Positions 36,336-41,341 of a stretch of 41,341 nucleotides of DNA are shown here, piece after piece. The notes beneath the pieces were generated by a model. The model was not told the DNA's origin and did no database searches. It saw nothing but the letters and a program-made list of their open reading frames with translations. The stretch lies in the IMG/VR virus record IMGVR_UViG_2718217863_000002. The stretch is one strand, 5' to 3'. Every line of letters starts with the position of its first letter. Positions within the stretch are counted from its first letter, which is position 1. The position numbers were made by a program, and so were the translations under genes. This DNA comes from a virus. Taxonomy: Duplodnaviria > Heunggongvirae > Uroviricota > Caudoviricetes.

Positions 36336-36504
36336 AAGACCCCTCTATTTCCCTGAATTTTCGTCTGAACTGCTCGAGGGGGCTGAAACACTCGTGCTTA
36401 TACCCTTCGCGCAGGTATATAACGCGCTGTGTCTGGGGCTCCCAGCGTATGACCCTGACCGGGACACCGTAGTGATCTCTGAACCATCGGTTAAGTTCTC
36501 GCAT
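36292..36504 (-). CDS. possible small protein upstream of the replication gene
   Basis: ORF track, 70 aa; overlaps the replication gene start and a competing ORF. Confidence 0.25.
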   Translation of the reverse strand: MRELNRWFRDHYGVPVRVIRWEPQTQRVIYLREGYKHECFSPLEQFRRKFREIEGSYEPVNAIKADSHQS

Positions 36505-36741
36505 ACTTTCTCCGCCTGGCCGTTAAAGTCCCCTACCACCCACTGAGCAAACTGGTAGCAGACAGGTTCGAACCCGCCTGGTACTCTTACCCCATACACG
36601 AACTGCACCGGTCCTGCTCCACCAGGAACTGGCCGCGCTACAAGTTGCGACCTGCGGTACTGTGTTGATAAACTGTTCATGCGTTAGTAATCTCCACTGA
36701 TAACGACACGCCACGACGCCAGGAGCTGCAACTCGCTGGCG

Positions 36742-37203
36742 TCACTTCTTTTTGCGTGAAAATAACGTGATAATTGCGGCAATCTCTTCTTCCCGAGCTG
36801 CCAGATGGCGGCGGTGATGCACCATGATTTCTTCGGCCTCGTGCCTTTCAATAACGCCATCTTCAAGTGCCTGTTCGATAATCTGATCAACCTGTCCCCT
36901 GGCGGCAGAGGTACGCATTGCCCGGCTAAACAAGTCCACGCGATCCAGCTCTTCCAGGTGCGGAACATCCACCAGCAAAGCACCACGACGGCGGGCGAAG
37001 TAGTCTGCCAGTAGTGACGTGTTGGAAATGTCTTCCATCGCTTCCAGCTCCGATACTTCAAAAAATCGACAGCCGTTTTTCTCGTAGAGGTTGTTGTTGA
37101 ACTGCGTCACGGTCATTCCCAGTGCGCCAGCCATTGCTTCGCGCCCACCTGGATATGCTTTGCACATCGCTTTGACGGCTTCTTTGAGGTTTGGCTCTAC
37201 CAT
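36742..37203 (-). CDS. CII-like regulatory protein
   Basis: ATG at 37203 (MVEPNLKEAVKAMCKAYPGGREAMAGALGMTVTQFNN..., HTH-like); directly downstream of cro. Confidence 0.5.
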   Translation of the reverse strand: MVEPNLKEAVKAMCKAYPGGREAMAGALGMTVTQFNNNLYEKNGCRFFEVSELEAMEDISNTSLLADYFARRRGALLVDVPHLEELDRVDLFSRAMRTSAARGQVDQIIEQALEDGVIERHEAEEIMVHHRRHLAAREEEIAAIITLFSRKKK

Positions 37204-37237
37204 ATTGATTTTCCTTTTGTAGTTATCGAATAACCGC

Positions 37238-37480
37238 TTAAGCAGTACGATTATTTGCACTTGGTACGTCATCTGTTTGATAGCGACTTGGGTACAAAAT
37301 GTGTAATTCGCTTATTTCTCCTCTAAAGAACTTGGCTAATCTCTCCGCCAGTTCGACAGATGGGACTTGCTCGCATCTTTCAATGCGGCTCAACGTTGCA
37401 GGATCTACCTGTACCCCGGTTGCAACGTGCAATAAGGTCATGCCATGCGATTTTCGCAATTTTCTTAATGGTGATTGCAT
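37238..37480 (-). CDS. cro: Cro-like HTH repressor
   Basis: 80 aa; HTH GMTLLHVATGVQVDPATLSRIERCEQVP; divergent from the CI gene. Confidence 0.65.
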   Translation of the reverse strand: MQSPLRKLRKSHGMTLLHVATGVQVDPATLSRIERCEQVPSVELAERLAKFFRGEISELHILYPSRYQTDDVPSANNRTA

Positions 37481-37495
37481 AACGCCTCCTATTTT

Positions 37496-37556
37496 TGCGT
37501 ATTACGCATGCTATTCCACGCTAGCGAATTGCGCAAGTTGCTTTGCACGAAACGCA
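37496..37556. promoter_or_regulatory. right operator region: three TGCG-N5-CGCA-type sites between cro and cI
   Basis: TGCGTATTACGCA (37496-37508), AGCGAATTGCGCA (37523-37535), TGCACGAAACGCA (37544-37556). Confidence 0.5.
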
Positions 37557-37577
37557 AAAACAACATGTAATGAGTGA

Positions 37578-38273
37578 ATGAAAATAGGATCTCGCATACG
37601 ACAACTTCGCTTAGCGAAGAACATTAAAATCGCAGAGCTTGCAGAAGCTGTGGGCGTTGATGCTGCCAATATTTCCAGGCTTGAAACTGGTAAACAAAAG
37701 CAGTTTTCAGAACAGACACTTAACCGACTTGCTCAAGCTTTAAGCGTAAGTGTACCTGACCTATTTACCTCTGACGAAAATGATACTACTGTACATATAA
37801 ACAGTAAAAAATATGCATCTCCCGTAAAGGATGTGGATGTATACAGAGTCGAGGTACTTGATGTGAGCGCAAGCGCCGGGGCAGGACATATACACGGTAG
37901 TGACGTCATAGATGTCATTCATGCTATCGAGTTCAGCAATGATCAGGCATTGGCAATGTTTGGTGGCAGGACTCCATCTGGAGTAAAGGTCATCAACGTT
38001 CGCGGTGATAGCATGGCCTCAACGATTGAGCCTGGCGACCTAATCTTTGTGGACGTAACTATCAATGAGTTCGATGGGGATGGGATTTACGTCTTTGGTT
38101 TTGATGGAAAAGTTTATGTTAAACGCCTGCAGATGATACCAGACCAACTGCTAGTCATCTCTGATAACCCTCGTTATAGAGAATGGAATATAACTAAAGA
38201 GAATGAACACAGATTCTATATCTATGGAAAGGTTTTAATAAGCCAGTCTCAGTCCTTTAAACGGCATGGATAG
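37578..38273 (+). CDS. cI: CI-type repressor (N-terminal HTH, C-terminal S24 LexA-like autopeptidase)
   Basis: HTH IKIAELAEAVGVDAANISRLETGK; C-terminal GDSM with Ser and downstream Lys (VKRL); 231 aa. Confidence 0.85.
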   Translation: MKIGSRIRQLRLAKNIKIAELAEAVGVDAANISRLETGKQKQFSEQTLNRLAQALSVSVPDLFTSDENDTTVHINSKKYASPVKDVDVYRVEVLDVSASAGAGHIHGSDVIDVIHAIEFSNDQALAMFGGRTPSGVKVINVRGDSMASTIEPGDLIFVDVTINEFDGDGIYVFGFDGKVYVKRLQMIPDQLLVISDNPRYREWNITKENEHRFYIYGKVLISQSQSFKRHG

Positions 38274-38291
38274 CATTCATCATCATAAACT

Positions 38292-38316
38292 AGGCCTCAT
38301 TCGAGGCCTTTTTTTT
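38292..38316 (+). terminator. rho-independent terminator after cI
   Basis: AGGCCTC-attc-GAGGCCT then TTTTTTT. Confidence 0.6.
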
Positions 38317-38323
38317 CGCCATA

Positions 38324-38366
38324 AAATTGCGAGTAACGCACATAGCTATTGCGTTACTCGCAATTT
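38324..38366. promoter_or_regulatory. candidate left operator: perfect 17-bp inverted repeat carrying two operator motifs
   Basis: AAATTGCGAGTAACGCA-(9)-TGCGTTACTCGCAATTT; each arm contains TGCG-N5-CGCA. Confidence 0.45.
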
Positions 38367-38636
38367 ATGATTATCTTCTACTCGTCGGCACATGACGAAA
38401 CTTACGGACAAGGATGAACAGAACACAACATGGAAGCGCATTCCCCTTCTTTCCGGTGGGGATCGGTTTGTAACTGAAGGAGTGCGCTTCCAGTTGTGTG
38501 GAGAACTAACGTACCGCCATTGCAGTGGCGGTCCCCCATCAGCAAGAAATTTTAACCAGCTATTCACCCACTTTCATGGGTTGGGTTGCTGCACCCTAAA
38601 TTTACGCGTTGCAGCGCGTCAGATGGAGAACAAAAG

Positions 38637-38936
38637 ATGGCTAAGACAGCAAATCAATTGATTAAACAGGCGTACGAAATAGCCAAAACTATGCCACCAG
38701 AACAGGCAGCAATCATCAAGGAACTGGCTACCGTCCTCGATGTTTCGAATGTAGCTCTGCGCCAGACACGCACCGAACGTGACGCCCTTCTCGCAGAGGT
38801 CAAATCTTGGGCGAAGGAGTGTGATCGTATTACTGAGCGATATACCAAGAAGCGCATAAATCTGCATGTCCTCGAAGCAATGCGCGATTTGAAAGCAATT
38901 TGCCCCACCAGCTTCCGTAACGTGGAGGCTCTCTGA
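38637..38936 (+). CDS. hypothetical early-left protein
   Basis: ATG at 38637 with GGAG RBS (MAKTANQLIKQ...); track ORF starts at an upstream TTG. Confidence 0.45.
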   Translation: MAKTANQLIKQAYEIAKTMPPEQAAIIKELATVLDVSNVALRQTRTERDALLAEVKSWAKECDRITERYTKKRINLHVLEAMRDLKAICPTSFRNVEAL

Positions 38937-39721
38937 TGGCTAAAGACTCAAAGCTGGTATATGGCGCGAGTGGCAAAACGAACGTTTTGACGTTCGAACC
39001 TGAAAACCTGCACCTGGTTACCGACAAAACGCACCCGCTTTACGATGAGCGTATCCACCTGCCTATCAGCGAGGCAATGGTGCTGAACATCATGGACCAG
39101 GGCGTTCTTGAGCCGATTATCGTCTGGAAAGACCCGGAGACAGGGCTGTCTTGTGTGGTTGATGGTCGCCAGCGTGTGCGACATACACTGGAAGCCAACA
39201 AGCGTCTGTCGAAAGAGGGCAAAGAACCGTTACTGGTTCCGGCAGTCGCTAAACGTGGCTCTGCCGTTCGCATGGCGCAGGCGATGGTAAGTGCTAACGA
39301 AATCCGCCAGGCTGATACGCCGCTGGGCCGAGCAAAGAAAATGGCTGATGCGCTGGACCGCGGGCACGACGAGGACGATTTATCGCTGATGTTTGGCGTG
39401 AGTGTTCAGACAGTACGTGCAACGCTGTCGCTGCTGGATGCCACCCAGGCTGTCCGCGATGCAGTGGAATCTGGAACTGTCACCGTTACCCAGGCGCGTC
39501 AGCTTGGTGCGCTCCCACCTGAAGAGCAGCGTGCCAAAGTGTCAGCAATCGAGCTGGCGACAGCTGGTACAACCGGCCATGAAAAAGCCCGGCGTCAGCG
39601 TAAGATTCTCGGTGAGGAAAAGCCGCGTCTGAAAACCCGCAAAGAAATTACTAAAGCCCTGGAATCTGCCGAGGGTGAGTATGCAAGCGCACTCCGTTGG
39701 GTGCTTGGGGAGTCCGTATGA
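38936..39721 (+). CDS. ParB-like nuclease domain protein
   Basis: 261 aa; IIVWKDPETGLSCVVDGRQRVRH resembles the ParB N-terminal box. Confidence 0.6.
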   Translation: MAKDSKLVYGASGKTNVLTFEPENLHLVTDKTHPLYDERIHLPISEAMVLNIMDQGVLEPIIVWKDPETGLSCVVDGRQRVRHTLEANKRLSKEGKEPLLVPAVAKRGSAVRMAQAMVSANEIRQADTPLGRAKKMADALDRGHDEDDLSLMFGVSVQTVRATLSLLDATQAVRDAVESGTVTVTQARQLGALPPEEQRAKVSAIELATAGTTGHEKARRQRKILGEEKPRLKTRKEITKALESAEGEYASALRWVLGESV

Positions 39722-39909
39722 CAATCATAAAAACCCATACCGGTACCGTGATCACCAAAGACGGTCCGAAGCTTAAAAAACTGCATCAGACAGAGCGGAT
39801 GTGGGTCGTTGGCAAAAACGAGTTTTACCACAAAGCGACCGGATGCCGTCATTTTGCAGAAAATACGCGCCGCCGGCTGCTGCTCGACACCATCAAGCCT
39901 ATCGAGTGA
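39718..39909 (+). CDS. hypothetical small protein
   Basis: ATGA overlap with the ParB-like stop (MTIIKTHTG...); 63 aa. Confidence 0.35.
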   Translation: MTIIKTHTGTVITKDGPKLKKLHQTERMWVVGKNEFYHKATGCRHFAENTRRRLLLDTIKPIE

Positions 39910-39972
39910 CGACTGGCCCGGAGAAAAGAATTGTAGAAGTTAAGCCGGTTGCAGCCGGTATATGGAGAAGAA

Positions 39973-40209
39973 ATGTCACGTATGGTCTCTTTACTCGAAT
40001 GGGCAAAAGATGAATTCGGTAGTGAAGCCCCTAGCGAGCGAGTATTAAAAAAATATGCTAAAGGCCAGATGATAGCACCACCACCGATGAGAGTCGGGCG
40101 GCGCTGGATGGTTGACAAAGAGGCTCGTTTTATAGGTGTAGTTGCTGAACCTCAACTTCCAATAAATGTTAACCCAAAACTGAGACGGATAATTAGCGAT
40201 GGCAGCTAG
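39973..40209 (+). CDS. xis: excisionase-like protein
   Basis: ATG at 39973 with GGAGA RBS; KGQMIAPPPMRVGRRWMV resembles the lambda Xis region RIFPPPVKDGREYLF; overlaps the int start. Confidence 0.5.
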   Translation: MSRMVSLLEWAKDEFGSEAPSERVLKKYAKGQMIAPPPMRVGRRWMVDKEARFIGVVAEPQLPINVNPKLRRIISDGS

Positions 40210-41341
40210 ACCGCGTACCCATAAAATCACTATTCCAAACCTATATTGCAAACTTGATAAACGTACCGGAAAGGTTTACTGGCAATACAAACACCCTATC
40301 TCTGGTCGTTTTCATAGCCTCGGCACGGACGAAGCTGAAGCAAAGCAGGTGGCAAGTGAAGCAAATACGATTATTGCAGAGCAGCGCACCAGGCAGATCC
40401 TTGGTATTAACGAGCGTCTGGCTCGCATGAAAGGAAACCGCACGGATATTACAGTTTCTTCATGGCTCGACAAATATGAATTGGTGCAGGAGGAAAGATT
40501 GAAACACAACGAACTGCGCCCAAACTCTTTTCGACAGAAAGCTAAACCAATTCGTCTTTTTCGTGAGCATTGTGGTATGCAATATCTAAAAGATATAACA
40601 GCACTTGATATTTCCGAAATAACAGATGCTGTTAAGGCAGAGGGTCATAACAGGATGGCTCAAGTTGTACGCATGGTACTAATAGATGTTTTTAAAGAGG
40701 CTCAACATGCTGGTCACGTTCCTCCGGGATACAACCCTGCCCAAGCAACGAAACAGCCACGAAATAAGATAAGCAGACAAAGGCTATCTCTGGAGGAATG
40801 GGAGGCTATTTATACATCCGCCGAACAACAACAACCTTATTTGCAATGTGGAATGTTGCTTGCCATTGTAACAGGGCAACGCCTCGGGGATATTTGCAAT
40901 ATGAAGTTTTCGGATGTATGGGATGATATGCTGCATATTGAGCAGGAGAAAACAGGAACTCGTTTAGCCATTCCCCTTTCTCTCAGAAATGAGGCGTTAA
41001 ATATTACTCTGAGTGATGTTATTTCAAAATGTAGAGATGCTGTGGTGAGTAAATATCTTGTTCATTTTCGCCATAGCACCTCACAGGCTAGTCGTGGTGA
41101 CCAAGTGTCAGCCAAAACACTTACTTCAACGTTCAAGAAAGCACGGGATAAAAGCGGTCTTACCTGGGAAGAAGGAACAGCACCGACTTTCCATGAACAG
41201 AGGTCTCTTTCAGAGCGATTGTATCGTGAGCAAGGAATAGACACTCAGAAACTATTGGGCCACAAAACAATGAAAATGACTGACATATACAATGATGACC
41301 GCGGCAAAGAGTGGATCGTTGTTGGTAAAAAAGCAGTATGA
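40199..41341 (+). CDS. int: tyrosine integrase (lambda Int family)
   Basis: 380 aa; C-terminus HEQRSLSERLY ... LLGHKTMKMTDIYNDDRGKEWIVV parallels lambda Int including the catalytic Tyr context; stop at the window end. Confidence 0.9.
   Translation: MAARPRTHKITIPNLYCKLDKRTGKVYWQYKHPISGRFHSLGTDEAEAKQVASEANTIIAEQRTRQILGINERLARMKGNRTDITVSSWLDKYELVQEERLKHNELRPNSFRQKAKPIRLFREHCGMQYLKDITALDISEITDAVKAEGHNRMAQVVRMVLIDVFKEAQHAGHVPPGYNPAQATKQPRNKISRQRLSLEEWEAIYTSAEQQQPYLQCGMLLAIVTGQRLGDICNMKFSDVWDDMLHIEQEKTGTRLAIPLSLRNEALNITLSDVISKCRDAVVSKYLVHFRHSTSQASRGDQVSAKTLTSTFKKARDKSGLTWEEGTAPTFHEQRSLSERLYREQGIDTQKLLGHKTMKMTDIYNDDRGKEWIVVGKKAV

Follow-up and report, generated by a model that had tools for sequence, protein, structure and literature searches.

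In phage lambda, the left operators of CI and Cro comprise three sites, OL1–OL3, which overlap the early-left promoter PL. The operator of phage 434 reads ACAA-N6-TTGT, with contacts made in the outer half-sites and a variable, A/T-rich centre between them. Here, we analyzed a stretch of phage DNA of 41,341 nucleotides (hereafter, the window), which represents a temperate siphovirus or prophage of the Klebsiella type with a lambda layout in its immunity region; its nearest GenBank records are Klebsiella phages 1 LV-2017, Kp4871-1, ST147-VIM1phi7.2, KPP5665-2, and KpF5. A full-text literature search did not find a published description of this immunity type or its operator, and the mEpimmI phages that the search brought up were set aside as a different group, with an N-like gene. 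Directly after the cI terminator the window carries a perfect inverted repeat, the arms of which, judging from the comparisons described below, are very probably CI/Cro operators that control the early-left promoter, that is, a lambda-like left operator, OL.

The immunity region begins on the minus strand with cII (36742–37203), the product of which belongs to the phage-186 CP76 family (PF06892) although the layout around it is otherwise lambda-like, and with a cro-like gene (37238–37480) that the open reading frame (ORF) list and Pfam describe as encoding an 80-aa HTH_3 protein and that has an AGGAGG Shine–Dalgarno sequence at 37484–37489. A 97-bp intergenic region separates cro from cI (37578–38273, plus strand), which encodes a 231-aa repressor with an N-terminal HTH_3 domain (Pfam E = 5e-11) and a C-terminal Peptidase_S24 domain (E = 1e-20). 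The solved structures nearest to CI by sequence were those of 434 repressor, SinR, and UmuD, its N-terminal DNA-binding domain being nearest, weakly, to the 434 repressor/SinR-type HTH (E about 1e-5 to 1e-4). The HTH regions of CI and Cro could not be aligned meaningfully by BLASTP, and their recognition helices, judged by eye from the Pfam-aligned residues, both read A-x-x-S-R-x-E. The terminator scan placed an intrinsic terminator after cI on the plus strand (38292–38317), with a stem at 38292–38309 (7 bp, GC-rich, with a 4-nt loop) followed by T8 at 38310–38317; this stem-loop and its T-run are kept at this position in relatives, the more diverged of which show compensating changes. Between the repeat and the first early-left gene lie about 270 nt in which no ORF is convincing. 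This first gene, a 99-aa ORF (38637–38936), is followed by a gene for a ParB-HTH (ParB-like) protein assigned by Pfam (38936–39721), a small ORF, xis (39973–40209), and int (40199–41341). These early-left ORFs form a tight block from 38637 to 41341, all on the plus strand, and no plus-strand terminator was predicted across 38370–41341. A single transcript running through xis and int is plausible.

The preliminary description, made from the sequence of the window, had reported a perfect 17-bp inverted repeat after the cI terminator, and we found it at 38324–38366: the left arm AAATTGCGAGTAACGCA (38324–38340) and the right arm TGCGTTACTCGCAATTT (38350–38366) are complementary at 17 of 17 positions and enclose a 9-nt loop, catagctat. 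The repeat starts 6 nt past the T-run that ends the cI terminator. No longer inverted repeat with a loop of up to 60 nt is present in the window, and 200 dinucleotide-preserving shuffles yielded perfect repeats of 13 bp at most. If one bulged A is allowed, the complementarity extends to CATAAA(A)TTGCG.../...CGCAATTTATG (38320–38369). As RNA, the repeat folds into a hairpin of −26.7 kcal/mol (z = −7.6), and a T-rich, interrupted stretch, TTTATGATTATCTT, comes directly after it; a simple terminator scan flagged the right arm by itself. The same description had argued that the repeat is no terminator because no T-run follows. Its denial of a terminator held, as the stem is not conserved (see below), whereas the reason that it gave was only roughly true, given the T-rich tail. 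An Rfam 15 scan of 36500–39500 returned nothing relevant, the one chance-level match being Atu_C8 on the cI terminator (E = 0.73), and a scan of the relative L001 (2600–3260) likewise returned nothing relevant.

Each arm had also been said to contain a TGCG-N5-CGCA site like those in the right operator region, and this was borne out by exact matches at 38328 and 38350 in the arms and at 37496 between cro and cI. The exact TGCG-N5-CGCA motif has five matches in the 41-kb window, where 1.25 are expected, and four of these lie in the immunity region (37446, 37496, 38328, and 38350). When the 15-bp palindrome TTGCG-N5-CGCAA was searched with at most one mismatch, seven matches were obtained, a number that none of 100 shuffles reached; six of the seven fall within the 0.9-kb immunity region (37445, 37495, 37522, 37543, 38327, and 38349), and the right arm holds the only exact match in the window. 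Three of the sites lie between cro and cI, one lies inside cro, and two are the arms of the repeat. Since the arms match the sites found between cro and cI, the repeat can be described as two head-to-head copies of the right-operator motif. Two left sites are recognizable in the window. The distal, OL2-like operator in the left arm (38327–38341; core 38328–38340) reads TTGCG-AGTAA-CGCAc and would occupy about −56 to −44 of the PL proposed below, and the proximal, OL1-like operator in the right arm (38349–38363), TTGCG-TTACT-CGCAA without mismatch, would occupy −35 to −21 (core −34 to −22). From centre to centre they are separated by 22 bp, or about two turns of the helix.

On the right side, site B (37496–37508; TGCGTATTACGCA) overlaps the predicted PR start and is kept in all relatives, site C (37523–37535; AGCGAATTGCGCA, one mismatch) lies at −34 to −22 of the proposed PR and has the least conserved left half-site, and site D (37544–37556; TGCACGAAACGCA, one mismatch) lies at −34 to −22 of the proposed PRM. 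A fourth exact site, TGCGATTTTCGCA, followed by ATTT, is located inside cro, in codons 8–12 (37446–37458). It lies about 50 bp downstream of the predicted PR start and is kept in all relatives, including the distant Buttiauxella locus described below; it may be a fourth site for CI/Cro, acting as a roadblock or anchoring a loop, or constraint on the cro codons may at least partly explain its conservation.

The preliminary description had pointed to a comparison with the OL regions of related phages as a check, and this comparison agreed with an operator. We compared 80 IMG/VR loci with CI proteins 86–100% identical to that of the window, together with GenBank relatives, which gave 56 distinct versions of the region after cI. 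In these 56 versions, the eight half-site bases of both left sites were essentially invariant, as was the downstream TTATCTT, and the only regular half-site change was CGCA to TGCA in the right half of the left site in the group with 86–91% identity. In contrast, the central 5 bp occurred in about 15 forms in the left site (TTTTA, CTTTA, TAATA, TATAA, AGTAA, and others) and in 13 forms in the right site, and the gap between the two sites was 9, 10, or 11 bp. The two centres varied independently, a change in one never being compensated in the other, and their complementarity to each other was 1–2 of 5 in 50 of 57 rows, which is the chance level. Whole arms were complementary at 10–13 of 17 positions in 53 of the 57 rows, usually at 12–13, and the full 17 of 17 was found only in the window and its identical copy, L004. 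In keeping with this, the hairpin of two homoimmune phages was calculated at −11.4 and −12.9 kcal/mol. Conservation was also traced outward. A pattern scan of GTDB representative genomes returned a single locus, in a Buttiauxella MAG, with a CI that is 68% identical and has a conserved HTH; its OL reads TGCGCATTACGCA, 10 bp, and TGCGCATTTCGCAA, so that TGCG-N5-CGCA and TGCG-N5-CGCAA are both kept, and TATCTT follows with the 17-bp spacing, at the same distance as in the window. The TTGCG and CGCAA of the proximal site were invariant in 34 distinct sequences that include this relative, the invariant columns being 38349–38353 (TTGCG), 38359–38363 (CGCAA), and 38371–38377 (TTATCTT). Conservation collapses at 38378, where the group with 86–91% identity switches to a different downstream module. 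The invariant half-sites, the uncompensated centres, and the low pairing of the arms in relatives together indicate that selection, as read from these alignments, acts on a pair of dyad sites, spaced by about two turns of the DNA, and not on the stem. The predicted functional unit is accordingly two separate palindromic operators rather than a 17-bp hairpin.

We then asked what the motif follows among related phages. Sorting 80 loci with CII proteins of at least 99% identity by their repressor gave four types on a shared backbone, each with its own motif in the cro–cI region and two copies of it directly after cI. Besides the window type, the type of L003 and L099 has copies of GGTAAC-N4/5-GTACA around TTGACC, that of L086 has copies of CTAA-N6-TTAG around TTGACC, and that of L137 has GTAAG-N4-CTTAC with ATGTAAGAT, around TTGACT. 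Since each immunity type has its own OR motif at this place, the comparison shows that the position after cI is the left operator/promoter throughout the phage group. Within this group, cro, OR, cI, and OL/PL are exchanged as a unit (37204–38377; loci L086–L165, with at least four repressor types); the cassette is bordered on one side by CII genes of at least 99% identity and on the other by the shared early-left genes, and its right edge falls directly after the PL −10 box.

To locate a promoter at the left sites, we used a rough sigma-70 matrix with approximate hexamer frequencies, which reportedly correspond to the Harley–Reynolds and Lisser–Margalit compilations. Promoter prediction had been named as a further check on the repeat, and the best plus-strand candidate in 38300–38640 overlapped the right arm: TTGCGT (38349–38354), a 17-bp spacer, and TATCTT (38372–38377), with a score of 9.07. 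Such a score is not significant by itself, as values of at least 8 turn up by chance roughly twice in each kb of a strand. This candidate, which we propose as PL (38349–38377, plus strand; predicted start at about 38384), is a weak match to the consensus at 7 of 12 positions and is conserved among relatives; a consensus promoter scan at a threshold of 9 of 12 gave no plus-strand promoter at the repeat. Divergent promoters were proposed in the same manner at the right operator, PR with TTGCGC (37536–37531), 17 bp, and TAGCAT (37513–37508), scoring 9.36, and PRM with TTGCAC (37543), 17 bp, and TGTAAT (37566), scoring 7.0. All three proposed promoters are alike in that the −35 hexamer is T plus the first five operator bases, which places the operator at −34 to −22, and the placement of the left sites relative to PL (−34 to −22 and −56 to −44) mirrors that of sites C and D relative to PR (−34 to −22 and −55 to −43). 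The PR −10 box reads TAGCAT, TAACAT, or TAAAAT among relatives and retains its key positions. Since the PRM −10 box ends 6 nt before the cI ATG and cI lacks a Shine–Dalgarno sequence, cI is probably translated from a leaderless mRNA, as in lambda.

Other promoter candidates near the repeat were considered. An alternative −10 box, TATGAT (38366–38371), with a −35 box TAGCTA, scores nearly as well as PL in the window, and it was rejected as the conserved promoter: among relatives the hexamer takes the forms TGTGAT and AATGAT, L166 has ATCTTT in its place, and many have lost either the A at −11 or the T at −12. A minus-strand candidate, TCGTCA-17-GATAAT (38398..38370), was judged unlikely, the final T of its −10 box (38375–38370) being G or A in four lineages and its −35 box being non-conserved. 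The invariance of TTGCG could come from the operator alone. Whichever −10 box is used, the proximal site is placed by these predictions within the core promoter. The view that the repeat is the likely control point of the early-left promoter was supported by its location between the cI terminator and the plus-strand early-left block and by a motif that tracks the repressor type.

We weighed four other explanations of the repeat against this reading. The strongest of them, which we nevertheless regard as unlikely, takes the sites as CI operators that do not act on the early-left promoter and are instead a roadblock or a remote anchor for looping to OR, the early-left genes being driven from a downstream promoter such as TTCATG-18-TAAATT at 38573–38602. 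The weak consensus match of the proposed PL is in its favour, as are the comparable score (7.69) of this downstream candidate, which lies 35 nt before the first ORF, and the unusual length, 250 nt, of the leader that PL would otherwise produce. However, the downstream candidate belongs to a module common to all immunity types and would not be repressor-specific, whereas xis and int must be silent in the lysogen; at the homologous position, the two OL sites of each of the three other immunity types enclose a near-consensus −35 box (TTGACC or TTGACT); and TTATCTT is invariant at its fixed 17-bp distance even at 68% CI identity. We consider it improbable, somewhat more so than a remote anchor, that the repeat works as an RNA or DNA hairpin, whether as a back-up terminator, a 3′ stabilizer of cI read-through transcripts, or a cruciform. 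The great stability of the stem in the window, the T-rich tail, and the terminator-like flag on the right arm would fit such a role, but the arms of nearly all relatives pair incompletely (the 53 of 57 rows above) with changes that are never compensated, relatives fold at only −11 to −13 kcal/mol, and at OR the motif is found again without any hairpin. An identity as an intrinsic terminator in particular was rejected, given the non-conserved stem, the interrupted tail TTTATGATTATCTT, and the strong canonical terminator that already stands 6 nt upstream.

ParB proteins bind palindromes near their own genes, and a ParB-like gene is present in the same transcription unit, so that the repeat could in principle serve the ParB-HTH protein, the gene for which lies 600 bp downstream, as a centromere-like site (parS). 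This role was excluded by a co-occurrence test across loci with ParB-like proteins 82–93% identical and different cI genes, and we give it very little credence. TTGCG-N5-CGCAA sites were absent from L003, which has a different immunity and a ParB-like protein 93% identical, and from L084 and L085 (82% identical), which are phages KpF5 and vB_VIPKPNMC05 and were used for the ParB test only, their cI regions being outside or absent from the stretch examined. Conversely, L002 keeps all six sites though extra genes separate its OL from the ParB-like gene. With the motif also repeated in the cro–cI region, these loci indicate that it follows the repressor type and not the ParB-like gene. Palindromes do arise by chance, yet a functionless chance palindrome is hardly credible here: the shuffled sequences stopped at 13 bp, and the half-sites stay invariant across relatives while their surroundings vary.

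For the preferred reading, two CI/Cro operators on the early-left promoter, a mechanism can be outlined. CI dimers would bind the perfect proximal site (38349–38363) and cover the PL −35 box, and the distal site (38327–38341) would help through cooperative CI binding. In the lysogen, bound CI would block RNA polymerase and keep the early-left genes (the 99-aa ORF, the ParB-like gene, xis, and int) silent; RecA-stimulated self-cleavage of the CI S24 domain would leave the sites empty and lift the repression. Cro, an HTH_3 protein, probably uses the same sites later in infection. Because there are at least two sites at each end, 0.85 kb apart, lambda-style looping between OL and OR by CI may also occur. 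In this scheme, repressor binding and its cooperativity, the loop, and the precise promoter and its start are inferred from the DNA sequence.

By position and predicted function, the feature is an ordinary, expected lambdoid OL/PL. It resembles the lambda region in the order of cI with its terminator, operators and promoter, and early-left genes ending in xis and int; in the presence of several dyad-symmetric sites that repeat the OR motif, with neighbours 22–24 bp apart from centre to centre; in a repressor with an S24 self-cleaving C-terminal domain; and in divergent PR and PRM promoters at OR, cI being predicted to be leaderless in the window. In contrast to lambda, the sites here are 13/15 bp, (T)TGCG-N5-CGCA(A), rather than 17 bp; two OL sites are recognizable instead of three, and neither overlaps the −10 box or the start; the −35 box is built into an operator half-site; no N gene follows PL, a 250-nt structured leader taking its place; Cro is an HTH_3 protein of the 434/P22 type and does not have the lambda Cro fold; and CII belongs to the phage-186 family named above. 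The 434/P22 systems share with the window CI and Cro proteins that are both HTH_3, with the CI N-terminal domain nearest to the 434 repressor/SinR HTH, and a short palindromic operator with outer half-sites and a variable, A/T-rich centre. They differ in half-site sequence, in the centre, which here has an odd length of 5 bp, and in the number of OL sites, which is two here rather than three; protein similarity is also low. The heteroimmune relatives on the same genome backbone, such as Escherichia phage vB_EcoS-733R5 and the IMG/VR loci L086, L099, and L137, have CII proteins at least 99% identical, the same early-left genes, and, straight after cI, a −35 box flanked by two copies of their own OR motif. 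They differ from the window in repressor and motif, however, and their −35 box (TTGACC or TTGACT) lies between the sites, with the proximal site in the spacer and −10 box, whereas the sites of the window type are 9–11 bp apart and the −35 box lies inside the proximal one.

We next considered why the repeat is perfect in this lineage. The window differs from its nearest non-identical relatives (L014, L017, and L018) at about eight positions over 37213–38498, and five of these differences cluster at 38321, 38326, 38332, 38333, and 38335. All five bring the left side closer to the exact reverse complement of the right arm and its flank, so that the extended pairing reads CATAAA(A)TTGCGAGTAACGCA versus TGCGTTACTCGCAATTTATG. 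A single templated event is suggested by five clustered substitutions that all perfect the repeat, and the perfect symmetry is most likely a lineage-specific accident of one clustered, possibly hairpin-templated mutational event. Templated mutation at quasipalindromes is a mechanism reportedly established in work by Ripley and by Lovett. A more specific version, which we put forward only tentatively, is that the perfection is unselected and that one quasipalindrome correction rewrote 38320–38340, the distal operator with its flank, using as template the complement of 38350–38369, the proximal operator with its flank. Recombination with an unsampled allele could also have been the source of the five changes. 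If a templated event did take place, it would have left OL with two identical operator cores in inverted orientation and with a hairpin or cruciform of unusual stability, and this could measurably alter either how tightly CI binds the distal site or how much transcription reads through from cI. Templated mutation within operators would then be one of the ways in which the operator centres of this phage group diversify.

This analysis provides a testable map of the genetic switch of a common Klebsiella/Enterobacteriaceae prophage family, of which our searches returned about 80 loci in IMG/VR and over 20 phages in GenBank. The map holds a consensus, TTGCG-N5-CGCAA, three OR sites, one site in cro, two OL sites, and proposed PR, PRM, and PL promoters with embedded −35 boxes, and it can help to annotate immunity groups and predict superinfection immunity, and also to engineer these prophages or induce them. 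Conceptually, it does not extend the lambda paradigm; the one mildly unusual feature is that the perfect repeat seems to have arisen by templating.

Several observations were made on the region downstream of the proposed PL. The leader of the early-left transcript (38384–38636, plus strand) is predicted to be untranslated and structured (RNA fold z = −3.2), with a long hairpin pairing 38431–38444 with 38479–38492 and a second one pairing 38513–38520 with 38525–38532. No Rfam family matched the leader, and it is not followed by an N-like gene. A role as a cis-acting RNA, for example in antitermination or processing, is possible. The strongest promoter-like match within it is on the minus strand, ATGAAA-17-TAAAAT at 38549–38577, aimed back at OL and cI; an antisense transcript from this site is possible, and the match may equally be due to chance. 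A mosaic junction near 38494–38498 is marked by the word GTTGTG(TGGAGAACTAACG) at 38494–38512, and in relatives two copies of this word enclose additional non-coding sequence, amounting to one or two modules (L001 2794–3075, L002 3794–4262, and L003 2240–2520). One such module, of about 265 nt and absent from the window, starts with the palindrome GGCACATGTGCC and ends with GTGCTCTTT(T/C)CGTTGTG, which resembles the rrn boxA. In addition, a short ORF begins at an ATG 8 nt past the predicted PL start (38392–38498) and spans 89 codons in the window; since it has no Shine–Dalgarno sequence and no family match, it is probably non-coding. In L001 and L002, this short ORF stops after 35 codons, exactly at the GTTGTGA junction.
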